A stretch of DNA of 53,388 bases, counting the filler, from Sluysia triapertura (Eukaryota): the NCBI GenBank assembly GCA_046118255.1. It is 4 parts of 4 records of this genome, joined end to end, with 100 filler letters (N's around TTAATTAATTAA, not from the genome) between each part and the next. Parts side by side here need not be neighbours in the genome. Positions count along the whole stretch, not along the records: positions 25,955 to 37,741 come from JBJNIA010170813.1; 3 more parts are not named here. One strand, 5' to 3'. The notes beneath the pieces are model-generated. The model did not search any database, was not told the DNA's origin, and saw only the letters and a program-made list of their open reading frames with translations. Of the stretch, positions 14,816 through 48,519 are shown piece after piece. The number at the start of each line of letters is the position of its first letter. Position 1 is the first letter of the stretch. A program made the position numbers and the translations under genes.

Positions 14816-15189
14816 CTAAACTAAAATACCACATTTTTATCTTCATTATAATGTTCCAATACACACTTAAATATGAAAATATTGATCGAAAAATTATAAG
14901 CCACTGAAAAATTATAATAGCTGATTTGGCTCAGAGTGATGTTTGGTTGTTCAAACACTTAATGAAGTTCTTGAAATGGCAGAAATTTGAAATATTTTCA
15001 TGAATTATGCTTATGTTTGTACTTATTTTCTTCCTATTTAATGAATAGACCTTAGTTATATAATTTCATTAAAAATCAATAATGGTTTATAATTGGTTGG
15101 TTACATTTTAGGTCGAATTTATATACCTAATTGTTAATGAGAAAAACAATAATTATTATTAGCCAAAAATAAATATTAGATTAACTAAC

Positions 15190-15454
15190 ATAAACCATTT
15201 ACCAAAATCTGTTATTTCAATCTGTTCTATATCATAACGCATGTTTAAATAAAACCAAATTACTAGATGATCTAACTGAAATCTTTCTGGACCAACTAGT
15301 TCAAATATTTTACCTTGATGATTAGCAGCAGTTCCAATTATCTTGACAACAGCTTTTGCAACATCGCCGACATAAATTGGTTGCTTAACAGTTTCTGTAC
15401 CACATTTCCATAAAGGAATTTGAACTTTTCCTGGTATTGTTCTAAGACGTCTCT
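15190..15454 (-). CDS. NDUFA9: Exon of NADH:ubiquinone oxidoreductase 39-kDa subunit (atypical SDR family); isolated, possibly part of a decayed duplicate
   Basis: RRLRTIPGKVQIPLWKCGTETVKQPIYVGDVAKAVVKIIGTAANHQGKIFELVGPERFQLDHLVIWFYLNMR matches the NDUFA9 segment PL...TVKQPVYVxDVxK....GKxFxxVGPxRYxLxHLV; acceptor ttttAG ending 15455 and donor GTTAGT at 15189. Confidence 0.8.
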
Positions 15455-16234
15455 CTAAAAGCATTAATTGAATGAACAATTATTTAATCGATAATTATTT
15501 ATTCAAATTTTAACAGTACTCAAATATGAAAAAATGAATAAGAAACATTCGAATCATTGATCCATAAAAGAATTAAATTAAAATTCCCTAAAACTTAAGG
15601 AAATAAATGTGAAATACTTTGAAACTATTACTAATTCCCTCATTTTTTAAATAAACTTGAGGATTATTGGAGCATAATTTATTGTAAAAAATAAATTCAT
15701 TCGAAATACACATACATTAAACAAAAGAAATGTCTTAAATGTTATTAATTAAATTTTAAAAACAAAACCCAAAAAACTATTCAATTAATAATCATGTTTA
15801 AGAAAAATCTCACAAAATAAGCAGCAGTAAATAACAATATTACTTTTAAGTTTCGTTTATGCATTTTAATAAAGATTCACTTTACTATCGTTTGTTAGTC
15901 CTTCCATAAAAATCAAAATAACAATGCATTGATTTATTGTAAAAATAAAATTGTATGGAAAATTGAACAATTCAAATTTCTTGAAGCATTAACTGATAAA
16001 CTTTCTGATAAATTTTCCATTAATACATGCATTGAAAATTTCATCTATATATTCATGAACCCAATAACCGCAATGAATCAATCATATTGTTGTTAAGTAT
16101 TGGCAATGTTAATTTTTCTAAACCCTCTACACTTCAACTAAATTTGAATCAATTTTCTTATTAAGCATCAACACCTCATACAGTAACAGAGCCTAACAAT
16201 TTATATTTTAACGGTCCAGTTTGTTCAAATATAT

Positions 16235-23498: not shown

Positions 23499-24045
23499 CA
23501 ACATAATTTAAATAATTTAAGCATCTTAAGAGACATCAATTGGAACGTACAACAAATAATGCATTATCCAAAATCATCCTTTTAAAACCATAAGATTTCG
23601 CGTTAAATATTTACATCAAATTTAATTCAATTTTAAATGTAAATTTCGAATGACAAAAATGATACTGACTGCAGATGTCTAAACAGTGCTGCAAAATCTA
23701 ATTATGTATCCGTCGCTTTTTATCGGAATTTTAATAGTAGTACTGTTTCTTATTTTTATATCGTAAAAAACATTTTTAATCATAGTTTTTTTATTACAAA
23801 TGTATAAAAGATCTCATTCCCTGTTAGCATTGCCAGCGATAATGTTGTAATAATTTCGAATTTAATTAAAGACAAGCTGAAATTAACTATTAATCACAAT
23901 TTATATGAAAACAAAGTGTTATCAGTAGAGTTAGTAAATTTGATGCCCGATGGAGCGAGCCTTATCACTCTACCCGTCTGGAAGAGAATCAGGAAATTCC
24001 ATTTCAGCGTAATCTCGTACATCAATGTCTATATAAATGTAAATT
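23370..24045 (+). mobile_element. Decayed Ty3/Gypsy integrase with GPY/F motif, interrupted by (TA)n at 23472-23498
   Basis: IISRY...IL(T)DQ(G)-like segment, QLERT (cf. GQxERxN), SRVSKFDARWSEPY (GPY/F motif) and NLVHQCLYK (cf. VHxxRLK) in order. Confidence 0.55.
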
Positions 24046-24728
24046 CAGACTTAATTATAGCTAAGAGATTGTTAATCGCCAATATGAGTTTGAATTTAAT
24101 TATTTTAAAAATTTCCTTAATACATTATTAAACGTGAACTAGATTATTTCGATGTCAAGATATCGGCATATGTCGACTACACCTTTTTACTAATTATATC
24201 TTTGTTGCTTCGGCCACGTTTGAATCACCTACTCTGACAAGACGTGTAGAAACGCTGGTTAAAGTGTCGACAACGGACTTCATATGGTTTCGATAGAATA
24301 GACAAATAATATCACAACTAAAGTTTCATTGTTAACGAATATTTTAAAAGTTATTGATTTTAAAAGATATAAGTTTTTATATCTTTACACTTGTAAATTG
24401 TGTTTTACTAAATATAAAAAGCTTGAGAGCGAAATACGATCTTGTCCTTTATAAGACGTCAATGTAAGATCGTGTGTTCTTGTCTAGTACTTATCTTTGC
24501 GCAACTTATACTCGTAAATTTTTAGTGTTCCTGTTATCTCATTTATAAAAGTCTTAATATTTGTCGGATTAAAGAGTTTTTTATTTGATTTATCAAAAAT
24601 TTCATTTTTATGAATTTTAATATCGGTTTAAGGCCGTAAAAACTATCAACGTTTAATTTTTGAATTAGAATCAATTAAAAAAGCAAAACAGCAGATAATT
24701 AATGAAATATTAAAAGCACATAATAAAT

Positions 24729-25954: not shown

Positions 25955-26059
25955 TCTTACAGTTATCATCCTTAAACGTATTTTTATCATAATCACCATT
26001 CATCTATCTTGAAATCATTTTGGTTGAGTGAAATTTTCATTTTATGAATCATAAATTAA

Positions 26060-26610
26060 TTGATTGATGATGATACGTCTAAAAGCATGGATTCAGATGG
26101 AAAATTTGTAGTATCAACAGGTTGTAGATTAGCGAGAAAACTGAAAAAGATACCCTTTGATCCACGAATGACTGGGGCTTATTATGAAGCTAATTATGTT
26201 TACATTAAAAATTTTTCTACAAATAATTTAGATATTGTTGTATTTCTTTTGGATTACCGAAAAATTTTGTAATCAAGTAATAGATAACAAATGTAGAGTG
26301 ATCTTATGTAGCTTTTATTGACTGTAAATTTCTTTTTCTTTTTGAATTAATATATATGTATGTATTTTACATTGATCAATAACATTAGATATTTTAAAGT
26401 TATCATATATGCAAATTAATTTATGTTAAGTAAAGATTTATCGAATGATTCAACATTTGAACATTTTAAAATAATCCATATTTTGTTGTATGAATAAAGT
26501 TAGTAATCAAGTAATAGATGGCAAATGTAGAATGATTTTATGTAACTTTTATGGAGTTGACTGTGAGGTTCTTTTGTTTTTTGATTTGATAGATATATAC
26601 GATATAATAC
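26060..26610 (+). pseudogene. Decayed ORF with an internal 234-bp (78-codon) duplication
   Basis: 26269-26362 (GTAATCAAGTAATAGATAACAAATGTAGAGTGATCTTATGTAGC...) repeats at 26503-26602 (GTAATCAAGTAATAGATGGCAAATGTAGAATGATTTTATGTAAC...); translations NQVIDNKCRVILCSF vs NQVIDGKCRMILCNF. Confidence 0.5.
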
Positions 26611-28906
26611 TCATTAGTAAAACAAGAATTGTACATATAAATAATAACATCATGAGTTTTTATTATTTTTATTTTATAATACGAAATTATAACACAGTAA
26701 TTAAACTAATAAGAAATCTCAATATCAAAATGAATTAACAATTACTTTTAATAATAATGTATAATGTATAAATTCAATTGTTCCTTAATAACAATATAAT
26801 ATCTCAATAAATCTTTTAATTATCACAATTAATAACTATTTTTTTATAATAATATATCTTCAATACACAAATTTACAGTTACAAATCTCTGTCTATAAAA
26901 AACTAAATCTACAAAAATTCAGGGTTAACACAACACAATAAATGTTGACAACCGTATTAACAGCAATAAAATAACAAAACTCGAGCTTCCTAACCTTGAT
27001 AACAACAAAATCACTCTTTTTTAAATTTTAATCAATTGCTAATTATGAGTCCTCAGTCACAATGTTATTCGAAATTGTGTTGGCAGAGTGCCCCTAATGG
27101 AGACAAAGCTTTGTAAAGTCTTCTTCTGTCCAGCTAAGTTAATCTTTCTTTTTAATATTACTACCGAAATCTCACTGCTTAAGAAATTGGAAATTGGAAA
27201 AGACGGAAATAATTACTTGTTAAACCATTTCCTCTTTTTAGTCGATGATAAGCCGACCAATTTTAATAATTAAAATTCAGTAGTAATTTCCACTTGTGTC
27301 CAATTTCATTGCCTTCTGCAATTACCAAGGGATAATGGGATTTGTGATAAACTATCCACTTATATTTTCACATCCTTATTACATTAATATTCTGTTTTTA
27401 AAACAATTTATCAACTTAAAAGTAAAAATAAAATTAATGTAATACTAAATTGTTTTCATAGAAATCTTTTATATAATACGTTGTGCATAAACCATACGTC
27501 GCACTTTCATTTCAATGACACGTTGTTTATCTCTTCATGAACATTAATTAAATATACACTTTAATTATACTTAAACATCACATCATATATAAATTTAATT
27601 TTAGATTATAAAAATAATTAAAATAACTAATTTTTACGTTACCTGCGTTGACATGCTTTGTAACACTTCATCATTAAGAATACAAATAAAATCCAGCATT
27701 AATTCTAATGTTATTTTATCATGAGCAAACATTTTCCACTAAGTTATCAAATTAAACAATTTTTAATTAAATTAATTAATAAATGTTCTTTAATATTTTA
27801 ACAAATAGCACCTTATAAAGGGTTATTTCATCGTATCTTTCATTCTTTTGCTTTGATTCAAATATTTTATTATCAGAATTCATCACAATGTTTCATCACA
27901 ATGCATCACAATGATTCCTCAATGATACTTATTTTATTCTTATGTTATGACTTATAACCCCTCTATTCTTCCTTATCTTTAACTAAACCTAACATAAATA
28001 AAGACTTTGTTACTAATCTCCATGCTTCATTTGTACTGAAAGATAATTTAAAAGTTATAGTAAAGAATTATCAAATCAAGCTAATAATTAATTTACGATA
28101 TGTCTGACACTTTGACAATTTTAAAATATTTAAAGATATTTTATTTGACTTTTTAGATTCAAGTTTAATGATTCAATTTTATATACAAAGCGTGCTACTA
28201 TAAGACGATCCAAGAAGCATCATGACTATGTTATTGATAATAATATTAAAGTCACGTTTTTTCTTTAAGTAAATTACGTTATGATTTAATTAAAATTTGT
28301 AAATTAAAAGCCTCTCAAAATTTAAGTGCTGTTTGTCAAGTCTGGATCTAAAAATTTCATATAAATTTAATAATAATAATTAATAAAAACAATATAAAAA
28401 TTAATAAAATTATGAATATAATTATTAATTAAAATTAAAAAGTAATAATAATTGTTATTACTATTATAGAAATTAATAATAATAGAGATACTAATGATAA
28501 TGATGGAAGCCAAGGTGATTTACAGAGAAATTGTTTACCATAAGAAAGTTGGTAATAATAATAATATTCATAATCATAATAACTGATGAAACTATTGTTT
28601 TAATTAATTCTACAAGATTTATCAAGAAATTACTTAAGAAAATTAATTGGATAAACTAAAAGACATAGAATAAAGCCTTGTTAAGACATTATTCTGAATC
28701 CAATGTAAATTTAATCACAAAACGTAACGTTGACGCATTACGTATTGAAAATACTTTTCTCTGTTAGAAGTTATTAAAAGTGGAAAATTATATCAATGTG
28801 AGTATATATAAATGTATAAATGTCACTTTATGTGAAAAGAATGCTGAATATTGAAAAAGAATGTATATTTAAAAATTAATTAATCATACTGTTATGCTTC
28901 ATTAAA

Positions 28907-28987
28907 TGGACTGACCGGGATTCGAATCCTGGCCCTCTTACCGCGCAGCTGCGAGGTTCGATGCTTTGTCCACTGTGCTATTTGCCC
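28907..28987 (-). ncRNA. tRNA-derived sequence (SINE head or tRNA pseudogene)
   Basis: Minus strand has A-box TAGCACAGTGG and B-box GATTCGAATCCC, but acceptor (GGGCAAA/TCAGTCC) and T stems contain mismatches and the anticodon arm is not canonical; a GC-rich island in AT-rich DNA. Confidence 0.7.
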
Positions 28988-29656
28988 CGTCTGACAATTT
29001 CATTTTATTAGAGTCAATTATACTATCATTATTCTAAATGACACTTTGGGCCTATACCTCTACAATATGAATCATTATTAGAAGATTACGAACTTGGTGC
29101 GGTTTTCGCTTGACGTGACAAATATTTTTCGGCTAAATAAAGCCAAAGGGATTATACGTATTTTTATCGTGTCTGTTTATCGATAATCGATTAATGGTAC
29201 TAATTTTACAAAAATATAGCTGGAAGTTTGAACCAACAAAATGTGTCAGAGTAAACCATGTTGGAGTTATCTAAAAGTATTTTGTTAAAACCTTCATTCA
29301 AAATATGTTATTAAAATGGAATGAATTACGAAGGAACCCATCAGTTAGATCTAATATAATTAATAATAAAAATGTACAAAATGAGAATAATTAATATTTT
29401 TATTAATATTTTTATTGTTAAAAATTAATATTTTTAACAATAATAGCTAATAATGTGATTATTGATAATATTAACAATAATGGTAATAACAGTATCAGGT
29501 TGCCATCACGACCCTCTAAAATTATATAAATTATTATTAAAATTTTTTAAAATCATTAAAAAAATATTTTAAAGTTTCCAAATATCCAAAAAACATATAT
29601 TTTCCAAAAAAGAAAATAAAATTTTCAAAAAGGAAAATGAGTTTCTAAAATAGAAT

Positions 29657-29719
29657 AGAAACTTCTAGAATGTTCTAGAACATTCCATCAATTTCTTTTG
29701 GCTGATGATTAGTATATAA
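29657..29719 (+). promoter_or_regulatory. Six-pentamer heat-shock element followed by a TATA box
   Basis: aGAAa cTTCt aGAAt gTTCt aGAAc aTTCc (29657-29686) is six perfect alternating nGAAn units; TATATAA at 29713-29719. Confidence 0.7.
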
Positions 29720-30381
29720 CTAGCATCAGTACAATTTTCGATACACAATAGTTATTCATCTTATTTTCATCTTTGTTTGTTTCTAAACCATCTGTTTTGA
29801 CTAGTTTTGTTAGTTACGGATATTTGGTTCAGTCGTTATTCTGAAGAATTCTATTCAATCATATTGGATATTTGGCAAAAATTTTATTTCATGAATATGG
29901 TAATTTGTTTTTTTTGTAGGGAATTTTTATCTTCCTGGAAGATAAAAAAAAATTAAAATATTACGATAAAATCCCTACTTAAACTTTGTTTTTACCTTTA
30001 TCTACGAGAGGAATTTTAAATCAATAAAATTGTCGCGTCTTTGTACTTAATAATAATAGCAAATTAATATCGGTTAATTTATTTATTTATTTTATTTATT
30101 CAATATAAAATTATCACAAATTTCTTTATTTTGATGATGTTATTTATTCAACTCAAAGATTAAATTTTAAAATAAAATAAACAATAATTCAATAATTTAA
30201 TGATTACAAAAAAATCATATACAAATCTTTACTAAACAACGATAAAATGACTAAAACTACAAGATTAATAATAACGTTTAAAATATAATCAAGGATATAA
30301 CAGTCTACATGAAGAAACCAGGATGCAACAAACACTAAAAAAATATCAATATCTAGAAAGTTTAAAATAGTAATCTTGGTT

Positions 30382-30660
30382 AAATATTTTAAAAATAAAT
30401 TGGACAGTGTGTCTTCTACAAAATTATATTAAAATTAGCTAAAAATCAAATTATTAATTTAAAATATTTTAAAAATAAATTTGGCAGTGTCTCCCACGAA
30501 GTTAACTTAAATCGCTAAAAGTCAAATAATTAATTCAAAATATTTTAAAAATAAACTGGACAGGGTGTCTCCAGAAAGTTGAATTAAAATTGCTAAAAAC
30601 AAAATAATTAATTCAAAATAAAATAAATTTGTCTGGGTGTCCCACAAGATTATTCTTAAG
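30382..30660. repeat. Diverged tandem repeat, about 76-79-bp unit, about 3.5 copies
   Basis: Recurrent AAATATTTTAAAAATAAA-TGGACAG(G/T)GTGTC...AAAATT(A)GCTAAAA...AATTAATT; a further related copy near 41905-41955. Confidence 0.8.
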
Positions 30661-30849
30661 ATTCTTCCCAGAAAAACTTATTTATTTTATTTTATTTAAT
30701 AATTTAAAATAATAAAAAATAAAAATAAATAAAAAGATTACCATATACATGGATCTTCAATGCTGGTAGGATTATGTGAATGTATGACTGTGTTATTGTG
30801 TTGCAAAATTTTTAAAATTTTTATTTTATACTCTTTCATTATCCAATCA

Positions 30850-31205
30850 ATCCCAAGTCTCACAATCAAGCACTATCTCACACAAATAATCCAAACCTCT
30901 TTGAGAATCAGACCGACAATAACAACTTTGACAATTACATGGTAAGGTCTGTCAAACTTCATTAGGTACAAAACATATAAATTTGATTTATCATCAACCA
31001 TCATTTCCTTTTACTCTAATCAATCTATTTTTACTTAAATTACTTATCATATTAAAATAACAATCTATAAAATTGTTAACCTACATAAAAATAATGAATT
31101 TAATTTCACATTTTAGAATTTAATTAATTTTTCTATTTTTCACACCCAATTTTCTAATGAAAAATGTTTTAAGGTTTTTATTATTAAACGAACCATTCTA
31201 CAAAC
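30850..31205 (-). mobile_element. Decayed Ty3/Gypsy integrase
   Basis: *NGSFNNKNLKTFFIRKLGVK (cf. DNGxxFxxxxFxxFxxKLGIK) followed by LMKFDRPYHVIVKV (GPY/F motif); the downstream non-coding tract 30110-30660 is homologous to 41560-41960. Confidence 0.5.
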
Positions 31206-32280
31206 ATTTCGAACTCACTTATAGATTCTCGTCTTTCATAGTAATCATCTCATATTCCATTCATCACATTTTCATCACTCTAAGTATAAAAAAATTCAAC
31301 ATTCAATAATTAAAAATTAATTAAAATTTGACTTTGCTCAATATTAAGGCTTTCTTGCATAGCTTCATCGAAAGGTCTTTCAAAACAAATACATAGATTT
31401 CCACATTCAAGTTATTCACAAAAATATACATTTTGTTAATTAAGTTAATTAAGTTAATTAAGATTTTAATTAATAGTCCATTTTTTGACTTAATCTTATT
31501 TTATGTTTAAAGCTATTTAGCATTTTATAAGACATTCAGGAGGCTCTAGATGTTTTCACCTTCACCTCTCTGATTCCTTTTTCTACTTCTTCATGCTAAT
31601 TATTACTATGTTAAACTTATCTTTATTATTTTGAACAAAGATTTTATTTCTCAAATATTTTAACGATTTTATAATATCACTCGAAGATCTTATATGCTTA
31701 TCAAGGTTTCAAGAATACTTAAAGATTAATAAGATCTTAAATGATCTAAAGGTTCCAAAGTTCAAAGGCACCTTAATGCTTCGAAAGGTTTTTTAAGTCC
31801 ATTTCAAGCTTTCTTAAGGTCTCAAACCCTTATATAGGTCTTTGGAACCTTAAGATATTCAGTACCTGTTAGGATCATTATAAATGCTTTCTTTATCATG
31901 ATTCTTATTTCAACAATGTTCAATTCATTTATTTGTATAAGTTCTTCCTTTATTTTATGATTTTATGTTTCTTTCTCCTGATCTACAGCTGGGCAATCCC
32001 AACATTACTGTTAATAATATTATTATTATTATTATGAAGCGATTAATTTATAAAATTAAATTGTAAAATATATTATTTTACTCATTAGAATCTAAATAAA
32101 TGGAATTACTACTGTTTACGAAAAATATTTATTGTTTTATTTTAAAATTAAATTATAAATATTATTATTATTAAAATTATTATTATTAAAATTATAAATA
32201 ATATTAATATTATTGCAATAATAATAATAATTATTATTGCAATAATATTGTTTTGTAAATATGTATTTTTTATTGTTCTA

Positions 32281-32790
32281 TTGTTTAATTATTTTATAAT
32301 TACTCACTTAACCAAAAATATATAATTAATTGACATATAATTACTTTTTGAATATATTCATTATAAATAAATAGAGATTGAATTACAATTATATTATTCC
32401 ATGAAAAGTTAATCTATCAAAAAAAACCCGCACCAAAGGAAAGAATAGATAATTCAGAGAAGTGTTTAATAATATTAATACTAACATTATATCATTTTGT
32501 TATTGTAGAATAATATTTAAAGAATTCATTATCTAACATAAAAATAAAGTTAATTGCATTACCAAGTAATTTTTATATTTTTATAAGTTTGAACTTACAA
32601 GTTTTACTATTTTAAAGGCTAAAAGAGAAAATATGTAATACGATTCCACCTTCAGAACAAATTATTTTAGGTATTATTTTAATCAGTGAGAATTATCCTA
32701 GTACATTCATATTTGATAGACAAAACTTGAAGGAATAAGAAACATCATTAGAAAATGCAAATATAAACCTCACACTAGGATTCAGCACAT
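32281..32790 (+). pseudogene. Probable decayed tandem ubiquitin-like (Ubl-Ubl) ORF
   Basis: Across stops and frameshifts: FIITHLTKNI*LIDI*..FEYIHYK*IEIELQ / HEKLIYQKKP...TLYHFVIV, then IKIKLIALPSNFYIF / KFELTSFTILK / LKEKICNTIPPSEQIILG...RQNLKE*ETSLENANINLTLG. Each half parallels ubiquitin IFVKTLTGKTITLEV..DTIENVKAKI...IPPDQQRLIFAGK...TLSDYNI..ESTLHLVL. Confidence 0.4.
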
Positions 32791-33311
32791 AATAACATCG
32801 CCACATTGCTGTATGAAAAATTATCAAAGTTTATTTAATGATAAATAGATCCAAAAAAATAAAACCTTATTTTCTATCTCCATAAGTACTCAAAGGCGTT
32901 TTCATATGTAATATTTATTTAAAAGTTATCATTATTGGATTTCAACTGGATATAAAAAATAAAATAATTTGCACTTAACTACTAAGTAAGTAATATTTAT
33001 TAATAAGTTGACAATAAAAGCACTAAACCTAAGATAATTGTGTAATTTCGATAAGAAATTGAATAAGTTTAGGTAATTAGTTAATAATAAAATCAGGTAA
33101 AATTGCGTAAGATCTCAAAACAGATGTGTGTGCGAGAAAGTTGAAAATAATTTGTAATTAATTATTGTCAAATAGTATTTAATAGAAATAAATACAACTA
33201 CAACAAATAACTTTAGATTTTATATATTTTAAAATATAATTAAAAATTTATCTAAACTGAAATTATTTAATATTTTTGTTAACATTTTTATAGTAATTAA
33301 ACATCAACTAA

Positions 33312-34862
33312 ATGAAGAAGTATCAGGATATTTTAGATCAAAATTTAATAAAAATATCAGTTTTTAAACTAACTGATACAAATGATGAAGATAATTGTAT
33401 TCAGTGTTATGGTCCATGTTCAACTGTATTAAGTTGTAGTCATTATTTTTGTAATGAATGTATAGATGATAACATTGCCAACATAAAAAGTGAAGGTTTA
33501 GAAAAAAATGAAAAATGTCCATATTGTTTAAAAAATGTTACAACAGTTAGTACATCACGACCTTATGCAGTGAATTGGCAAAAAATATCAGAAATAAGAA
33601 ATCTCCCACATGAATTCTTGGAAATATATAAAACTAAACTTAAATGGTTATTGATATCAAAAAATTTGGATTTAACAGATGATTTTATGGCTCGATTTTC
33701 TGATAATATCAAATATATGGAATTATCACGCAGAAAGAATTTACCACTTGATTTTTTAACGAAATATAAATATAGATTACATCTTCGATTTTATATTATC
33801 ACCAATATGGATGATTTGTCTAATTATGAACAATTTATTGATTGGAAACTTGTATCAACTCTTTGCTATTTCCCTTTTTTAAACGATTTTACGTCCAAAA
33901 AAATATATTGGAATTATAGCAAATGCTTTGAAAGCGATATTTTACAAAGTCATTACGATAAAATAAATTGGCATTTGCCTGGAAATGATGATCCCGCTCC
34001 TGAATATATGGAATTTATTAAACATAAACTAGATTGGCAGAAAACTAGCAAGAAATATAGAAATCCTGAATATATAATAAATAATTATTATGAATATATA
34101 GATTGGAACTCTATGTCAAAAAATAAAAGTATTAATATCAACATTATGCGTAAATATAAGCATAAATTAAATTGGAAGAATTTTAATATCCTCTATACAG
34201 AAGATATAATAGAAGAATTTGAAGACTTGATTGATTGGGATAATGTGTCCAGATCACGAGAATTGAATATCGAAATTGTTTCTAAATATTCAAACAAAAT
34301 AAACTGGAATATCATTTGTGCCAAAAATATCGAAGATGTATTTGATAACATTAAAGATAAAATTGATTGGAATGTTATTTCTAAAAATTGTGATCTTTAT
34401 TTTCTTGATCCTCAATGTTACACAAACATAGATTGGAAAAGTCAATCAAAAAATATTTCCTATTTTATTTGGGAGAACACAAATTACGACAATATTATTC
34501 ATTGGGACATATTTTGGAGTAAAAATAGATCTGCAGTTAATTTTATGAATAATTATTGTCACAAAATAAACTGGAATTGTCTATCTCAAAATCCGTATCT
34601 TAAATTACAAACAATTGATATATACAAAGACAAATTTAATTGGGAAGATATATCAAAATATACGAAATTAAGAAACATTGATACTTTCATGCACGAGAAT
34701 ATACGATGGGACATAGTTGCTCTGAGAAATGATTTGAAGCCATATTTTTGTGCTTTATTCAAAAGTAAGCTTGATAATAATATTTTAGTTAAAAATCCAA
34801 TAATAAATGATGAATTTATGAAAACAGTCGAACATATTAATACAACATTACTTCCAGAATAA
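33312..34862 (+). CDS. RING-HC (C3HC4) finger plus about 19 tryptophan repeats; putative E3 ubiquitin ligase resembling entomopoxvirus/NCLDV W-repeat proteins
   Basis: Uninterrupted 516-codon ORF in DNA where other ORFs are short. RING: CIQC-x9-CSH-x2-CNEC-x18-CPYC. Then 20-23-aa repeats of the form (I/L)(D/N)WxxISxNxxLxxxFIxxYxDK. Start context TAAATG at 33309-33314. Confidence 0.85.
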   Translation: MKKYQDILDQNLIKISVFKLTDTNDEDNCIQCYGPCSTVLSCSHYFCNECIDDNIANIKSEGLEKNEKCPYCLKNVTTVSTSRPYAVNWQKISEIRNLPHEFLEIYKTKLKWLLISKNLDLTDDFMARFSDNIKYMELSRRKNLPLDFLTKYKYRLHLRFYIITNMDDLSNYEQFIDWKLVSTLCYFPFLNDFTSKKIYWNYSKCFESDILQSHYDKINWHLPGNDDPAPEYMEFIKHKLDWQKTSKKYRNPEYIINNYYEYIDWNSMSKNKSININIMRKYKHKLNWKNFNILYTEDIIEEFEDLIDWDNVSRSRELNIEIVSKYSNKINWNIICAKNIEDVFDNIKDKIDWNVISKNCDLYFLDPQCYTNIDWKSQSKNISYFIWENTNYDNIIHWDIFWSKNRSAVNFMNNYCHKINWNCLSQNPYLKLQTIDIYKDKFNWEDISKYTKLRNIDTFMHENIRWDIVALRNDLKPYFCALFKSKLDNNILVKNPIINDEFMKTVEHINTTLLPE

Positions 34863-34930
34863 ATAATTCTAAATTGTTAATATTATTTTAATTTAATAAA
34901 TTTTAAATGCTTAAATTTTTAATAGTTGAT

Positions 34931-35780
34931 ATGGTAAAAATCATTTCTTGTACTTAGGACACATTTGTAAGTGGATGTTATGTAAATCACCAATTTTGTA
35001 AAGATGAAAGCTGCAAATATTAAAGATCACATTTAAGAAAAATCATAAAATAAACTTAAAATTCTCGAATCATTTTTATGAATTATTTTCAATGCTATAT
35101 TTGTAAAGAGCATAAAATATGACCACCCGAAAAACTTATCTGCGCCCATTTTCTTTTCAACCCACTAATTTAAAATTTATTCTCTTATGATTGCAGATTA
35201 AGCAAAACCACATCAAGTAGTACTTTGGGGCGAGCATAAGTTTGAAGGTATCTGATTATAAAATTTGTATTGTATTATGCAATATTGATTTAGTTTTAAC
35301 CCCAATATATCAATATCAATTTTCGATAATGTAATTAAATAGAAATATATTACAAATGTATAATGTAAAATCTGAAAATGCATTCTTCAAATAATAAATT
35401 TGTGCTTATTATTGCATAAAATTTAGGAGTAAGCTATCATTACAATTTAATCATATAAGCTTGATTTTAGGACTATTTTAAGAATAGTTATTATTAATTA
35501 GAAACTACTGTTGTTAAATATGATGAAATAAAATTAACTGAGTTAAAACATAGCAATACTTTCATTACTTCTAATTCCAATGGTATTTTTTGTACTTTGG
35601 TATTTCTTTCTAAGTTACAACAAATTGCTATTAATATTAAAAATTGCAAACCTGCATTGACCCAAAATATAAATTTTATGAATAACGATACGATTAGTTT
35701 TTGTAAACCTTTTTATAATGGTAAATTTTATAAATCATTAAATGTATTTTTTCTATAGATTGATTGCATAATTAATTTAA
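34931..35780 (+). pseudogene. Probable decayed RING + W-repeat paralogue (same strand)
   Basis: GCYVNHQFCKDESC and FQCYICKEH (RING-like ligands), then FSFNPNISISIFDNV (35289), YKLDFRTILR and NKIN* (TGA where TGG is expected, 35527-35541), resembling the repeats of the intact ORF. Confidence 0.45.
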
Positions 35781-35949
35781 GATATATGTAATATACATAT
35801 AAATAAATCAAATATTTTCAAGTCTGCATTTGTATCATAACAAAACTTAATTTTAATTATAATTGAAATTACTACCGCGAAATAATATAAAACCATAACG
35901 TTGTAAATTTTGCATTTTGTTGAATGAAATTTAAAACGATATTTAGAAA

Positions 35950-36830
35950 TATTTCTCAAAGTAATAAAGTAAGTATTTTAAAAATAAATTTTTTCACATC
36001 GTAACTCCATCTTCGATTCTGATACAAAAATCTTTCTTTGATACTTTGAATCTTTTTTTCTTTCATTATCTTCAATGAATTTCATAGTGAAATTGTCTTT
36101 AAAATGCTTGGCTCAATATTTTAAATATCAAACAGTTCTTGGAGTTCTTCTGTAATGAAAAACTTAAATTTTGGAATTTAATGTCCTGGAACTCTAGAAT
36201 GAGATCTTCACTCAAAACTTAAATGCTATTCCAATTCACTATTACCGATTCATTAAATTAAATTAATTAATTCATGAAATTCTCGGATTTATGATAATTG
36301 TGAACTAGAAATTTGTTTTTCCAAAAGTTCTTATTTTCCAAGAACGAAAATTAATCTTTTCTTGATATTTTTGATAAATTTCCTTCAAGTGATATTCTAT
36401 TCGGCAATTAAATATATGTCATATCGAAATATTTTGTACACAAAAAAAAGTCGATACTTTATTTGTTACTTCATAACATGCGTTGATATTCCATTGCATA
36501 TTTTGATCAAAGTAATAAATGATAATTTTACTCTCCATTTTATAAGATGCTTTAAACTCTCTGAAGGTAAGTTAAACGTAGATTGAAAAATGAATTTTGG
36601 GTGAATCGGTAAATTCATTTTAATATTCGTGCATAAAAAGATATAGTAATACAGTATTTCATCTTAGATCTGTTTATATTTCTGTATGTAGTCGTTTATC
36701 TCTCATATAGGACACATAGAAACGGCATGAGAAAATTTTACAATGTCATAATCCCATCGGCTTGTATAGATAGTGACAAAAATACTCGGTCTAGCTAGTG
36801 ATACTTTCTTTCGCATCCAAGATAATATTG
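35950..36830 (-). pseudogene. Decayed RING + W-repeat paralogue (convergent strand)
   Basis: YYLGCERKYH*, MCPI* (TGA for Cys, 36714-36703), FNLPSESLKHLIKW, EIYQKYQEKINF, SQLS*IREFHELIN, VNWNSI*VLSEDLILEFQD (36239-36183) and DNFTMKFIEDNE appear in an order matching the intact gene architecture. Confidence 0.6.
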
Positions 36831-37167
36831 ATGTTTAAAATGTTACTTGGTGATTAACAGATTTTATTTGCCATGAACAAATATAGTGTTGTATAAAAAA
36901 AATAAAAATAAACAGAGAGAGAGAGAGATAGATTAATAATAAGGATAAAAAAGAAAATAACTATAATAATGATAACAATTATGAGATTATTATGTTTACT
37001 AATATAGAATTGTTGAAATTTATTATGAAATTTTATCATAAAATTATTATTAAAGTTATTATAAAAGTTATCATTTGATATTTATTATATAACAATAATG
37101 ATTATAATTTTTTACAATTTTTTAATATGATATGAATCGTAATAATAATAACAATAGCTGATGATAG

Positions 37168-37625
37168 TTAGATGTGATGGTCGTTTTTACTTTTAAATGA
37201 GTTTAGTAGTTTGTTTAATAGTTCGTGTATTTGTGGAGTGTTTTTATGCGATGAATTGTGATGAATTATGATGGATTTTATGTGATGAGTAATAATTTTG
37301 CAATATATCAAAGATCTTGTAAGATTGTTAACAATATAATTGTAACAAAAATAAATAAAATAATGAGTATATCCATGCACCAAATGATGAATTTCACAAC
37401 GACTATCTGCGAAATTCTCTGCACTTATTCATGATCTGTAATACATTGCTTCTTCTATCTCTTTTTAATAAGAATACGCTCTCAAATGCAACTCATATCC
37501 TAAGAACAAATACTAAATTCAAGAATGTAGTCTTAAAAGTCGCATCAGATCACTATTCAAAACAATTTCCTTCAGAAACAAATTCTTTAACTTCTATAAA
37601 ATGGTATCTTCTGAGAGATCACTTG
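37168..37625 (-). pseudogene. Single-frame decayed ORF with several in-frame stops, unknown family
   Basis: DLSEDTIL*KLKNLFLKEIVLNSDLMRLLRLHS*I*YLFLGYELHLRAYSY*KEIEEAMYYRS*ISAENFADSRCEIHHLVHGYTHYF continues in frame into the 37168-37383 ORF. Confidence 0.3.
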
Positions 37626-37741
37626 TCTCAAACAAAACATATAAATACCATACATATTGTTAGTGTTTTTCCTTATTCCTAACAAATTATCTGTCGGGTC
37701 AGTTCGCTTAGTATATACGCTTTATACCAACTTGGAGACGT

Positions 37742-40129: not shown

Positions 40130-41170
40130 ATCATGACAATTTCAGGTAAAGTCGAAGACCTCAAGAAAATTATATAGCATCGAAGAGAATATAAGGAAAT
40201 CTATTTTATCTTGGATGATGTGGCAAAGGTTCCTTAAATGAGAATCAGTTTAAGAAACTTACTATCACTGACGAAATATAAAGATTTTAAAATGCAACAG
40301 AAGGTAGAGAATAGTTTTGCGATAGCCGTAAGATGTTAGTTATTACTATTACTATTGAAGCTCAGTTCATCCGGCAACTAATTTCATTTCATTTTACTTA
40401 ATGCTCACTCGAAAATCCCGGTCGATCTAGACGGCATATCTAGACTGAATATTTATATATGACAATAATGCGAGAAGATCTACAAGATACGTAAAAACGT
40501 GCAGATTTACATATTAAATATTTCAAAGTATCTTTTAAGGACAATTACGACAAAAAAGCAAAATAATATAAGTTTCAAATAGGTGATAAGGTATTAGTTG
40601 ATTATCCATCATCCAAACCAGGCTATTCTCCAAAATTACATAAGGGACTGCGTGAAGTCACGGTAACCAATTTATTTATTAAAGATCCATGTAAGAAGCA
40701 TTAGTGGTTCACGCTAATAAATGTAAGGCAGCATCGAAAGAAGAATATAGTTGGAGAAGTAGAAAAATAGAGAAAACAAAATTAAAAGTTCAACCCAAAG
40801 ACAAGGATCGGGACAAACCACACTCGATTCATTCACTTATTAATAAACAAATAATATTATGAGGGAATCATTGTTAAGAGTACAAAACCACATTTTTTAA
40901 ATGTATCTCTAAATGGTAAATGGATTAGAGCCGTTAGTGACTCTAGCGCTGCTACATCAATAGTACATGATAAATTTTTAATTATCCGGGAAATTGTACC
41001 GATGGATCGACTTATAACAATAATCCATAATGTCATTCTAACTCCACTAAATATTAATGATATATTGCTATGTTACATTACTATCTTGGATCAATATGTT
41101 AATGGATCAATGAATTGGACAATAGCCAATTTGAAATAATAGGACTGGAGGACATAGATAAATTCGGTGA
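40130..41170 (+). mobile_element. Decayed Gypsy-type integrase followed by a retropepsin-like aspartic protease
   Basis: SSVHPATN..FYLMLTRKSR, YMTIMREDLQDT, KDNYDKK, KFQIGDKVLVDYPSSKPGYSPKL and LVVHANKCK (integrase C-terminus), then FLNVSLNGKWIRAVSDSSAATSIVH ... IIGLEDIDKFG (protease DSG-like and ILGxD motifs). Confidence 0.7.
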
Positions 41171-44364: not shown

Positions 44365-44754
44365 CTTCAATTTCATTTTTGCCACTCTAATCAAAATTAT
44401 TCAGTAACTACCACTGTCAGTGGCTATTTCATTAAATTACATTTCCAATCGCTGTCACCACTGATAGTGGTTTGTCATCATTTTAATGAATATAGTGCAT
44501 GTTTCCATTGGCCATTCACCCAGAGTTAACATCACTATCGTTATTTTTATGATTCTGGTTGGATGACCAATCAATTATCATTATATGTCAAAAATTTTTA
44601 TTACTACACAAATTGGTAATTTAGAAAAAATCCTCAGCACAAAATAAAAATGGCTAATCTGAAATTATTCAACTACGGTTGTGAAACATTTTGAATATAA
44701 AGCGAACGACTGTAAATGTGGTGATTATCAAGTTAATAATGATGTTAAATATAA

Positions 44755-45090
44755 CAACTATCAAATATACAATAATGAAGATAAGTATAACATGACTAAC
44801 AATAGTAAAATTCATAATTTCCAAGTTAATAACGCTAAAGATGATCAGAATAAAGTTAATTATGTTAATTATGTAAACTTTCAAGTATATAATGACGAAA
44901 ATAAATATAACGCGTTTAACAATAATAAAGATGATAATCTTCAAGTTTATAATGCTAAAGATAATCATAATAAAGCTAATGCTGTTAATTATGAGAACTT
45001 TCAGGCATATAATTATGAAGATCAGTATAATGTGATCAACAATAATAGAGACGATGATTTCCAAACTAACAATGCCGAAGATGACAGTGG
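44755..45090. repeat. Diverged 60-bp minisatellite with open frames on both strands (44681-45328 +, 44669-45259 -)
   Basis: A (T/C)CA(A/G)-centred motif recurs at 44761, 44821, 44881, 44941, 45001 and 45061; plus translation has 20-aa repeats NFQVYN.ED..N. Confidence 0.75.
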
Positions 45091-45894
45091 CGAAGTCGAC
45101 AATGAAGAGGAAGAAAACAATGAAACTACTAATGTAGACAAAGATAACATTGGTGGAGATGATGTTACGCAATATAAGAAGATGAAAGATGTTAATGATG
45201 AAGTTAACAACAATAAAGAGCATGATGACTCGTTTTACTGCTACGAAGACAATATCCATAAACTTAAACAGTACAAAGTTGATGTTTTTAATTTTTATAA
45301 AAATAATACGTCTTTACGAATTTTATGATTATAAATTAATTGTCTTTAATTTTTTAATGCTAATAATAATATTTATAAACATAATGAAGATAAGTCTAAG
45401 GTTTATAGAGTGAACAACAATAGTGATGATCTTCGTTCACTTAATAATTATAAACTTGATGAATCTAGACTTAATGATAATAAGCATGAGTATTACATGT
45501 TCAATAATCAAAAAATTGCTCTTATAACTGCCCTGTGTTCAGCTTCTACCGACAACAAATACATGGAATATTCTGTCGCTACGCTCATTCTGTTCATGAA
45601 TTGACGGTCAGCAAAGAAGATGAAGCAATAGACACGAACAAAGAATTACATAATTAATAAAAAGTATTATGGTTGTCTCTACCACTTCATCTCGCAATAT
45701 TTTAATGGACAACAACGTCAAGGCAAATAATATTTACTTGTATATCTTTTGTGTTAACAATTATTATTATTTTTTTTATTAGTAGGTGAAACGACAAGAA
45801 GAAGTATCATACATTTTAACTTAAAAAAATTCTAATCATTAACCATCCACAACAACATAACCTGCTTAAGCCTGAGAAACTTGCAGAAATACGA

Positions 45895-45932: not shown

Positions 45933-46306
45933 TTGAAACATTTTTTATAAAATGTAAATTGATATAAGATGAATTTGTTTTATTTCATTGTAACAAAATA
46001 TTTATTTTATTTCCGACAATTAAAATAAAACTGTTACAAATAAGGCAAACGAATTTAAATAAATTTTATTAAATTTAAAAATAGAAAGATGGCCATTTTA
46101 GTAGCAATAATATGAATTATAATGTGAAATACTAAATATAATTTATAAACATTATTTATTATTTATTATTTTGAAATTGTGACAATTCTTAAAGCTTAAA
46201 TAATTTGAATTTTGAAAGCATCCATTTATTATTCAATATTAAGGCATTGTTTTTACCGTAACTATAATTTAATATTTAATATTTGATCAAACATCAATAT
46301 ATAATA

Positions 46307-47180
46307 CAGCATGTTCCAAAAATAACCGAACCCCAAACTTAAATAAAAATTAGATATCACAAACGATAAATGTAATTTTTTCTTTTGTTATTTTATGTTA
46401 TCTTCGCTACTATTCATTTCCTTCTGCAATTAGTAGTTTTTTGAATGACTTTTGTAATGTGATCTTATTGATTTTGTTCTGACGTCATTGCTTGATTTTT
46501 GTTCAGCGTGCGCTTCTGGACCTTCGTTCTTAAAAATGCACCGAAGGACTTCAGATTTGAACGAACGTATCTTTAGTGTTAAAAATTACTCTGCAAGGAC
46601 TAGCTACAAGCATGTTGAAGAAAGATGAGAAGGAAACTTCAGAACATGTATACCGAGTAAATCGACAGTGTTCAATTTAAAGGAACTGTTAATGATGAAA
46701 GTTGCCTTGTTATACTGTAGACTAAAGTGTTTCCTATTGTTATTGAGTTCTCCCATTTCGGTGATCTTCATTTTCAACAAGATGCAGCACCTACGCATTA
46801 CACTAAAGATGTTCGACAATGGCTTAATGAAACATTTCCTTGAAGTTGGGTTGGATGCCGAGGACCAATCGAATGGCCTGTCAGATCTCCAGATCCGACA
46901 CCGCCTGATTTTTTTATATGGGTAGTTCTAAAGAACGCAGTTTATGATAAAAAGTCTAGGACAATTGATCAACTAAAACAAAGTACTCAGCCCAAATGGA
47001 ACCAAAATTCAGAGGAAACTTGCCAGAAGGTATGTCGCAGTGTTTTCAAAAAATTTCGTGCTTGTATTGAAGGTGGATATTTTGAAGATTTGTAAATACT
47101 AAATATTCCTATTAAATTTGTCGTTTTTGATATCTAATTTTTATTTAAATTTGCGATTCGGTTACTTTTAGGACACCCTG
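46307..47180 (+). mobile_element. Non-autonomous Tc1/mariner element, DD41D (rosa/VS) family, 874 bp
   Basis: About 70-bp imperfect TIRs (CAGCATGTTCCAAAAATAACCGAACCCCAAACTTAAATAAAAATTAGATATC vs reverse complement CAGGGTGTCCTAAAAGTAACCGAATCGCAAATTTAAATAAAAATTAGATATC); TA at 46305-46306 and 47181-47182. Transposase remnant FQQDAAPTHY...FP*SWVGCRGPIEWPVRSPDPTPPDFFIW...GGYFEDL* has 41 residues between the second and third catalytic Asp. Confidence 0.92.
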
Positions 47181-48519
47181 TATTTTTACAAGTATAGATT
47201 TATTGTTTACTGTTTTTAGCTTGATAATAGTTTGCCTTTCCTCAGATGCTAAAAAATCAATACGTTTGGTAAATGGATATTCTGAGGTGGGGATAACTTG
47301 TTTTTGAATTTTTCACGAACTAAAGTTAATTCTTGCCGGCGTACATAATTAGCTTGAATATCGTTTTCTAATACATTAATTTTTAAAAACGTGTTCTCTA
47401 ACCGCTTTTTTGAGCTTCTTTATATGTTTTTATTTTTCTTCAATTTTAATACATTTTTTATCTTTAGCACTTTCGATTTCGTTTGACCATTGTGAAGATA
47501 GGATCATAAATTTCATCTAACGTTTGCCTTTTAACTACTGATCGGCTTCAAAATATCATTTCATATCACATATTCTTTTTAAGTAAACATTCAAATAATA
47601 TGTGGTGACTCAACTTATTACAAAATCAGACATAATAATAAACATTTAACAAACATACTTTACATTTCCAATTTAAATCATATATTCTTTACCCATTTCT
47701 TAGTTTAACTACTAAGAAATTAATTCTTAATGAATTTATGCCTAAAGCGAAGGTTCCTGTAGGATTGAATTTAAACTTAACGAGTATCGATTAAATTAAT
47801 GAATCTTAACTGCATAAAATTGTTTGATGCTAATTAAACGAATTAGTGATGGAGTGGTTGCTAAATGTTTCAGTTCTCACTTAGCTTTTTCATTAAGAAG
47901 TTAAATATTATTCTTTAACTGTTTGTACGTAAAACTTAAAGATTTTAAATTTTAAAATTTTCAATCATTTTTTAAATTTATTTAGACGTGCCTCTCTTTT
48001 AATATATTTGTTAACCATTGTCATATTCTTCTTACTTGAAGGTATATGAACTAATGATCTTACTTTGACTAAGATTTATTTATCTGTAGCGTTATTTCAA
48101 TTACAACGACTTCCAATCGATCAACTTAAAAATTTTAATAAATTCAATGACTAAAAAAACTTTAACTTTAAAAAGTCTTTGACCATAATTGTAATTAATA
48201 TCTTCCTTTCTTTATATTAATTCAGATCTTACGAATATTTTTATTAAGTTTTATATTACTCTAACTATGGGTTTGTTTACTCTTCAAAATTTTAATTTTA
48301 TAATTCCAATTATTGTGTTTAATAGTTTATCTTTCTTTATCCCAACCACTCTGTTAAATCACATTTTATTCAAAAATCTTTTCTGTTTTTTATTCAATGA
48401 TAAACTTTTCCTTTTAATCTAATTTTCTTAAAGGATTTTACCTTGATAAAACTTTTACAATTCTTTTGTTTCTAAATTGATAACTCAAAGAATTAAATTC
48501 AAGAGCCGAAAATATATTA

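Follow-up and report, generated by a model that had tools for sequence, protein, structure and literature searches.

The question raised by this locus is whether a stretch of DNA from Sluysia triapertura contains genes taken over from a large DNA virus, and whether any of them has been kept. The window, meaning the whole stretch of 53,388 nucleotides that was analyzed, had been read in a first-pass annotation as holding, at 32281-36830, a virus-derived ubiquitination cassette that consisted of a decayed tandem ubiquitin-like (Ubl-Ubl) gene, an intact gene that combines a RING finger with tryptophan repeats, and two decayed paralogues of the latter.

The intact open reading frame (ORF) proved to be real. 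It lies at 33312..34862 on the plus strand and encodes 516 amino acids, with a RING finger that has all eight zinc ligands and approximately 18 tryptophan repeats. At the window stop frequency of 0.0855, the chance expectation for an open frame of this length is about 1e-16. The repeat region (33561..34835, plus strand) consists of units of 20-23 aa that are predicted to form a helical solenoid. The gaps between successive Trp residues measure 19-23 residues in 13 of 17 cases, and 13 of the 14 window-wide matches to an external 23-aa profile fall inside the ORF. Tandem units of 21-23 aa with a conserved Trp, the mark of the tryptophan repeat family, are thus present in the protein. The GC content of the ORF is 25% versus 24% for the window, and composition is of no help in telling virus from host. 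The ORF has no intron, and its stop is followed after 45 bp by the next ATG.

The RING finger is of the C3HC4 type and occupies residues 29-72 (33396..33527, plus strand), with C29-C32-C42-H44-C47-C50-C69-C72 as ligands. The C3HC4 RING has the spacing C-x2-C-x9-39-C-x1-3-H-x2-3-C-x2-C-x4-48-C-x2-C, which the ligands of the 516-aa protein fit, and Pro70 after the seventh ligand (C7) is retained. The best Pfam RING match stayed under the curated cut-off (E 0.0017, 18.7 versus 27.9 bits), while a profile made from five unrelated RINGs scored 52.5 bits on the ORF against a shuffle maximum of 17.5. In canonical monomeric RING E3s, the central helix provides a Trp that contacts the E2, and the last Cys is followed by a linchpin residue that is basic or Gln. 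Neither is present in this RING, where Asn54 stands at the C6+4 position and Leu73 follows C8 in place of a basic linchpin. Because some active RINGs also lack these residues, the likeness to a canonical E3 is lowered by this result, not removed.

The region that had been called Ubl-Ubl (32400..32930, plus strand) was not supported. All that it contains is one ubiquitin-like motif of 6 residues at 32643-32660, a match that was reached by 8-9 of 200 shuffles. Pfam found no family in the full and short frames of 32400-32930 with stops read as X, phmmer against the PDB gave no ubiquitin-family match for these frames, and single-sequence and 8-sequence ubiquitin profiles that allowed frameshifts and GT-AG introns scored at chance level. 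The two supposed Ubl units share no DNA similarity. As a control for the profiles, a ubiquitin gene was recovered with 30% of its bases resampled, often with 45%, and not with 60%; a decayed Ubl of very high divergence could therefore still escape detection. The decayed tandem ubiquitin-like ORF was rejected, with a chance score in every test, and the idea of a cassette with its own modifier fails with it.

Of the two decayed paralogues that had been described, the convergent one held up. It lies at 36127..36561 on the minus strand and consists of unit fragments in three frames with stops; over approximately 0.43 kb the frame changes at least 4 times and 2 stops occur. When a profile of outside proteins only was applied with a forward score that tolerates frameshifts, none of 200 shuffles matched it under either parameter set and it ranked first of 200 non-ORF tiles, while its Viterbi score was weaker, being reached by 0 of 100 and 3 of 100 shuffles and tied or exceeded by other tiles. 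The evidence for a RING upstream of it, extending to about 36820, is marginal, as 8-12 of 200 shuffles reached its score. The probable tandem paralogue (34904..35234, plus strand) is weak. It starts with a TAAATG at 34904 and contains the first half of a RING only (35090-35149), in the same frame as this TAAATG, with 5 stops in the first 81 codons of that frame and a junction-like stretch at 35202-35234 in a different frame. The half RING was reached by 0-1 of 200 local shuffles (local P about 0.01) and was outscored by at least 7 of 206 tiles elsewhere in every setting. No repeat signal was found in the tandem remnant, since 107-120 of 200 shuffles reached its score. Neither remnant was recovered by plain single-sequence tblastn of the 516-aa protein, and a scan with the whole 23-aa unit profile missed both. 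There was also no DNA similarity between the ORF and the relics by DNA alignment, so they may differ in age. Frameshift-aware alignment across 32281-36830 thus bore out the convergent relic but not the Ubl region; judged from the sequence, one broken relative stands beside the intact gene, probably together with a second, for which the signal is weak.

In the database searches, 1513 proteins matched the 516-aa protein at E<=1e-3 and none at <=1e-30, with identities of approximately 20-37%. No close relative was found among the 1.84 billion representatives searched, the searches returned no orthologue, and there was no vertically inherited animal family among the matches, which agrees with the earlier view that this is not a standard animal family. 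A RING was present in only 3 of the 109 relatives scanned. Two environmental proteins, P0077 (227 aa) and P0224 (144 aa), have the same RING and tryptophan-repeat architecture and are encoded on ENA contigs of 16 and 46 kb. Both align with the ORF from the initial Met onward, across the RING and on into the repeat region, so that the N-terminus, the RING and the RING-to-repeat junction are colinear with the ORF (26% and 32% identity, respectively; RING region E 3e-9 within the compared set). They differ from it in having RING-H2-type ligands, the Trp of a CINQW motif, and only 2-5 regular repeats. No genomic loci of such relatives were found in IMG/VR, and JGI metagenomes gave generic RINGs only. 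A GTDB search for them gave only one candidate locus (L079), and the first matches in the ESM Atlas, scored at 0.76-0.77, are leads only.

An AlphaFold2 model of the 516-aa protein took an alignment of repeat proteins as its input. The pLDDT of this model over the repeats was mostly 70-95, with low values at 189-199 and 364-406, and was <50 in the RING region; the single-sequence model reached a pLDDT of 34. In a Foldseek search of BFVD, the nearest named predicted fold was entomopoxvirus MSV205 (rank 2, E 4.7e-15), and three other named tryptophan-repeat proteins of entomopoxviruses were also among the top 7; proteins of marseillevirus, pithovirus and Megaviridae followed in lower rows. The TM-scores to these viral matches were only about 0.3. 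Against the PDB, Foldseek gave nothing at E<=1e-3, and no close solved structure was found. A likeness to ankyrin-type solenoids was rejected as not meaningful (best VIA-align Z 5.5, rmsd 10.9 over 300 residues).

The entomopoxvirus tryptophan repeat family (MSV205, MSV027, MSV029, AMV029 and the Mythimna separata EPV member A0A916P757) shares with the ORF a Trp repeat of approximately 23 aa, the lack of introns, a similar length (530 aa in MSV205) and the best named fold matches. However, the ORF is only about 20% identical to these proteins, with a TM-score of about 0.3, and lies in host-like DNA that has no poxvirus core gene. The family is also common in jumbo phages, where Bacillus phage G (gp558-563) and Listeria phage LPJP1 have the same repeat in tandem gene clusters; these are bacterial viruses, and their arrays, unlike the ORF, have no RING. 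Further tandem clusters occur on a giant-virus-like contig (L062, 3 genes) and a GVMAG contig (L020, 2 genes). In arthropods, Argiope bruennichi HNY73_019622 belongs to the same repeat family but has near-perfect repeats and no RING. Endogenous viral elements of this family have been reported in ants, and the accessible part of that report describes no RING, cluster or retained ORF (PMC6540820). AMV254, another family member, is described in the accessible part of a further report as having an F-box, which is a ubiquitin-ligase module (PMC7728225). A literature search, thin in its coverage of subscription journals, found no paper that describes the retention of a RING/tryptophan-repeat gene by an animal.

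The setting of the ORF is gene-poor, AT-rich invertebrate DNA. Open frames of at least 150 aa cover only 5% of the window, which is therefore not a free virus genome. An NDUFA9-like exon (15200..15452, minus strand; best match Drosophila, E 3.6e-14) serves as a host marker, two segments from the ORF and across an N gap. A second host marker, a fragment resembling an arginine/phosphagen kinase (26084..26194, plus strand; E 1.3e-4 to arthropod arginine kinases), lies together with the ORF, the relics and simple repeats on one ungapped segment of 11.8 kb (25955-37741). In the assembly a viral-type gene is thus contiguous with host DNA, as in an endogenous viral element. Viral core genes, whose linkage had been proposed as a check, were not found in the window, nor were other viral relics, when two sets of selected fragments (37 and 150) were scanned with Pfam; a tblastn search with 1441 ORFs, taken from 79 loci, found no further viral relic in the window either. 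The tRNA and Rfam searches gave no match. Among listed sequencing runs, none of RNA was seen to contain the sequence, and one run of unrecorded type, which shares 64% of the words sampled, may be the source of the assembly.

That the intact gene is of viral-type origin is supported by its best fold matches, which are viral, by the absence of a vertically inherited animal family from the matches, and by the gene-poor invertebrate DNA around it. To this extent the earlier proposal of a chunk of a large DNA virus stands, but no core gene names the donor. The occurrence of the family in jumbo phages weighs against the assignment to a eukaryotic virus. In the reading that we favor, with considerable room for doubt, the intact gene is the survivor of a repeat-gene cluster from a large eukaryotic DNA virus and encodes a predicted single-chain ubiquitin ligase in an invertebrate genome. 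The donor would be a Nucleocytoviricota virus, poxvirus-like at modest odds, from which a small tryptophan-repeat gene cluster was taken up; the neighbors of the intact copy would then have decayed, while purifying selection kept that copy open. At the lesion density of the convergent relic, a neutral ORF of 1.55 kb is estimated to stay open with Poisson odds of about 1e-9. Selection on the ORF is likely, as judged only from its intactness beside decayed kin.

An unlikely alternative is that a single virus-derived gene entered long ago and that its neighbors arose by host duplication and loss, with no multi-gene viral chunk involved. The lack of any other viral gene nearby and the heavy decay of the relics are consistent with such a history, as are the repeats of the ORF, whose irregularity far exceeds that of the typical viral units compared. 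However, the ORF and the relics share no DNA similarity, the genes are tightly packed, and tandem arrays of this family already exist in viruses.

It is less probable still that the ORF is intact only because it was inserted recently and has no function, or is a young copy, next to older relics. The lack of the two canonical E2-contact features in its RING and the virus-like TAAATG at its start speak for this, but no close viral relative exists among the matches, and a recent insertion would have had to land between decayed kin and bring no intact neighbor.

There is little probability that a large mobile element, of the Maverick/Polinton type or another, brought in the genes instead of a poxvirus-like or giant virus. 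A tryptophan-repeat protein of Argiope bruennichi, P0162, sits on a 137-Mb contig and has an N-terminus that we take to be reminiscent of a Polinton capsid, although Pfam found nothing there; against this route, 30600-37741 contains no convincing terminal repeat, and no integrase or polymerase relic appeared in the Pfam scans of selected window fragments. An assembly chimera or contaminating virus contig is the least probable explanation. The assembly does have patched gaps, but the single ungapped segment of the ORF also contains relics full of stops, simple repeats and the fragment that resembles an arginine kinase, and such decayed flanks are not expected of a live virus.

In the favored reading, the RING of the protein would recruit ubiquitin-charged E2 and its helical solenoid would bind the substrate. 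Since this RING has neither the E2-binding Trp nor the linchpin, the ligase step may be weak or may depend on dimer formation, and host ubiquitin would presumably be used, with no dedicated ubiquitin-like modifier encoded in the region. A further step, that an invertebrate lineage domesticated this viral ligase, so that it is now expressed as an E3 of the host and maintained by purifying selection, is put forward only tentatively. The direct fusion of a RING to the repeats supports, at the level of predicted domains, the view that the repeats may be substrate-binding modules of ubiquitin ligases, and the 516-aa protein is a single-chain candidate for testing that role in a family that spans entomopoxviruses, giant viruses and jumbo phages. 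Should expression and conservation of the gene be borne out, an animal would have retained an accessory gene of a large DNA virus to serve its own protein turnover or defense, and domestication would give a cellular handle on the binding partners of this uncharacterized family. Otherwise the locus is one more viral fossil of the kind already reported in ants.

The TAAATG at the start codon (33309..33314, plus strand) overlaps the ATG of the ORF and is, we assume, poxvirus late-promoter-like. It is present at both plus-strand starts, those of the ORF and of the tandem remnant. TAA precedes 94 of the 1889 ATGs in the window (5%), so as a sign of a poxvirus the motif is a 5% chance event per start and only suggestive. 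Just upstream, where an acceptor-like site stands 22 nt ahead of the ATG, the sequence TTTTTAT at 33285 may represent either an early terminator of poxvirus type or a portion of a splice acceptor of the host.

The longest ORF of the window is an intron-less frame of 516 codons on the plus strand (33312-34862), and the chance expectation of such a frame is about 1e-16. Within residues 29-72, a C3HC4 RING has its full set of eight ligands. Pfam placed this RING under its cut-off (E 0.0017), and a profile made from five unrelated RINGs gave 52.5 bits on the ORF compared with a shuffle maximum of 17.5. Tryptophan repeats start at residue 89, where 13 of 17 Trp-to-Trp gaps span 19-23 residues, and an external 23-aa profile derived from 1146 repeat units in 154 other proteins had 14 matches across the window, 13 of them inside the ORF. 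The open frame, the ligands, the repeat spacing and the profile scores demonstrate that the intact RING and tryptophan-repeat gene proposed by the first-pass annotation is real. AlphaFold2 modeling with a 110-sequence alignment predicted a helical solenoid (mean pLDDT 71; RING region below 50), and the predicted fold had no significant match among solved structures.

A phmmer search of 1.84 billion representatives returned 1513 proteins at E<=1e-3, 158 at <=1e-10 and none at <=1e-30; the ORF therefore has no close relative there. In Foldseek comparisons with predicted viral structures, MSV205 of Melanoplus sanguinipes entomopoxvirus (MsEPV) ranked second (E 4.7e-15), the top seven also included a Mythimna entomopoxvirus member, MSV027 and MSV029, and marseillevirus, pithovirus, Megaviridae and phage G proteins were interspersed among the viral matches. 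Because the TM-scores of these matches are only about 0.3 and repeat proteins went into building the model, the predicted fold shows that the ORF belongs to the viral tryptophan-repeat family and does not indicate a donor.

Some tryptophan-repeat members of MsEPV probably carry RINGs, as the first-pass annotation proposed. Among 109 relatives scanned, three had a RING: P0066 at the C-terminus and two environmental proteins, P0077 (227 aa) and P0224 (144 aa), at the N-terminus, the latter two being colinear with the protein encoded by the ORF, starting at the first Met and continuing up to the repeats. Tandem clusters of tryptophan-repeat genes occur on the giant-virus-like contigs L062 and L020 and also in jumbo phages. 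On L062, a gene with ankyrin-like repeats and a RING is separated by 3 kb from an array of three tryptophan-repeat genes (9194-10219, 13122-15802). Another family member with near-perfect repeats, HNY73_019622 of Argiope bruennichi, is located on a 137-Mb spider contig; its N-terminus, fused to the repeats, recalls what we take to be a Polinton capsid, which Pfam did not confirm. Two ant endogenous viral elements match the entomopoxvirus tryptophan-repeat gene (PMC6540820), the family member AMV254 has an F-box (PMC7728225), and phage G and an invertebrate iridovirus are noted to have members of the family (PMC12484599, PMC6669658).

Two decayed paralogues had been proposed beside the intact ORF. 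Since neither was detected when the ORF was compared with its flanks by plain tblastn or at the DNA level, frameshift-aware profile scores were compared with shuffles and with window-wide tiles. The convergent remnant is supported: with either parameter set its forward score (minus strand, 35900-36900) exceeded all 200 shuffles, and it ranked first among 200 non-ORF tiles. The Viterbi score was weaker, being reached by 0 and 3 of 100 shuffles, with other tiles tied or higher. Repeat-unit fragments in three frames run from 36561 to 36127, and two of these fragments share a frame at a spacing of exactly four units; 2 of 296 collected proteins matched this bin by tblastn at E<=0.05, with one match elsewhere. 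The RING of this remnant is marginal, its score being reached by 8-12 of 200 shuffles. The tandem remnant (34904-35234, plus strand) is somewhat more probably real than spurious. Its half RING (35090-35149) scored above 199-200 of 200 local shuffles and shares its reading frame with an ATG at 34907, a frame interrupted by 5 stops in 81 codons, but 7 or more of 206 tiles from other parts of the window scored higher and the forward score gave no repeat signal.

The tandem ubiquitin-like remnant (32400-32930, plus strand) did not hold up. Pfam was blank, PDB gave no ubiquitin-family match, and scores that used ubiquitin genes from viral contigs and permitted frameshifts and introns were inside the shuffle range (18-169 of 200; 33-94 of 120); only a six-residue ubiquitin motif matched (8-9 of 200 shuffles reach it). 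In the control, a ubiquitin gene was found every time with 30% of bases resampled, often at 45% and not at 60%. Given this sensitivity and the chance-level scores, a ubiquitin fossil of moderate age is unlikely; a very divergent, very old one may be present, but nothing supports it. The ligase-plus-modifier cassette was rejected, as the region scores at chance throughout. What stands of the claimed cluster of three genes and their own modifier is the intact ORF and the convergent relic, with a weak tandem copy. Elsewhere, one ORF in a giant virus bin (L064:1498-2217) has three tandem ubiquitin-family units joined by short linkers; one unit is ubiquitin-like, and the other two are identical to each other and more divergent.

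The surrounding DNA is host-like. The window has 24% GC and is gene-poor, with open frames of at least 150 aa covering 5%; it is broken by three patched gaps, and the ORF and remnants all lie inside the ungapped segment 25955-37741. That segment also contains an arginine-kinase-like fragment (26084-26194, plus strand, E 1.3e-4), and an NDUFA9-like exon lies at 15200-15452 on the minus strand (best match Drosophila, E 3.6e-14). From these markers the host is an invertebrate animal, probably a protostome. No further exons were recognized next to either lone fragment, and these may represent exons separated by long introns, or parts of pseudogenes. AAT simple repeats are present on both sides of the cluster, and a search around it gave no convincing terminal repeats.

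In host-like DNA and next to decayed relatives, the ORF still encodes an intact RING joined to a virus-type repeat array, and it is most likely an endogenous viral tryptophan-repeat family member with an N-terminal RING. Part of a repeat-gene cluster from a large DNA virus would have been inserted into the germ line, after which neighboring copies would have decayed while the ORF was retained. The family, the decayed kin and the host-like setting fit the proposed large-DNA-virus chunk, but no other viral gene emerged when two selected sets of the window's open fragments (37 and 150) were run through Pfam, or when 1441 ORFs of 79 retrieved loci were used as tblastn queries. TAAATG, presumably the poxvirus late-promoter core, is at the start of both the ORF and the tandem remnant and at 94 of 1889 ATGs window-wide, and is suggestive only; TTTTTAT just upstream of the ORF would fit either a poxvirus early terminator or a portion of a host splice acceptor.

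The convergent relic has at least 6 disablements in about 0.43 kb, and the Poisson odds that a neutral 1.55-kb ORF of its age stays open are about 1e-9; the ORF is therefore either maintained by selection or of more recent origin than the relics. It has possibly been domesticated by the host. In single-chain RING ligases, the RING takes the ubiquitin-charged E2 and another part takes the substrate. By analogy, the RING here would bind charged E2 and the solenoid would bind substrate. This model is weakened by an Asn in place of the usual E2-binding Trp and a Leu at the linchpin position, where P0077 and P0224, unlike the ORF, retain Trp and Gln; judged from these residues, ligase activity may be weak, dimer-dependent or lost.

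Several minor features were also observed. A tRNA-like stretch at 28905-28990 (minus strand), seen by eye and matched by neither ARAGORN nor Rfam, is possibly a SINE head or tRNA pseudogene. A 221-aa Asn/Asp-rich frame (44663-45328, plus strand) without a Pfam match lies on a 120-bp tandem repeat (2.9 copies) and is open on both strands. Two short plus-strand stretches (40567-40859, 23909-24061), blank in Pfam, resemble by eye what we assume to be decayed LTR-retrotransposon integrase C-termini. The stretch 46844-47092 (plus strand), also blank in Pfam, resembles the C-terminal part of what we take to be a Tc1/mariner-type transposase; it is flanked by a 74-bp inverted pair (46303-46376 and 47111-47184) that may be its terminal repeats.
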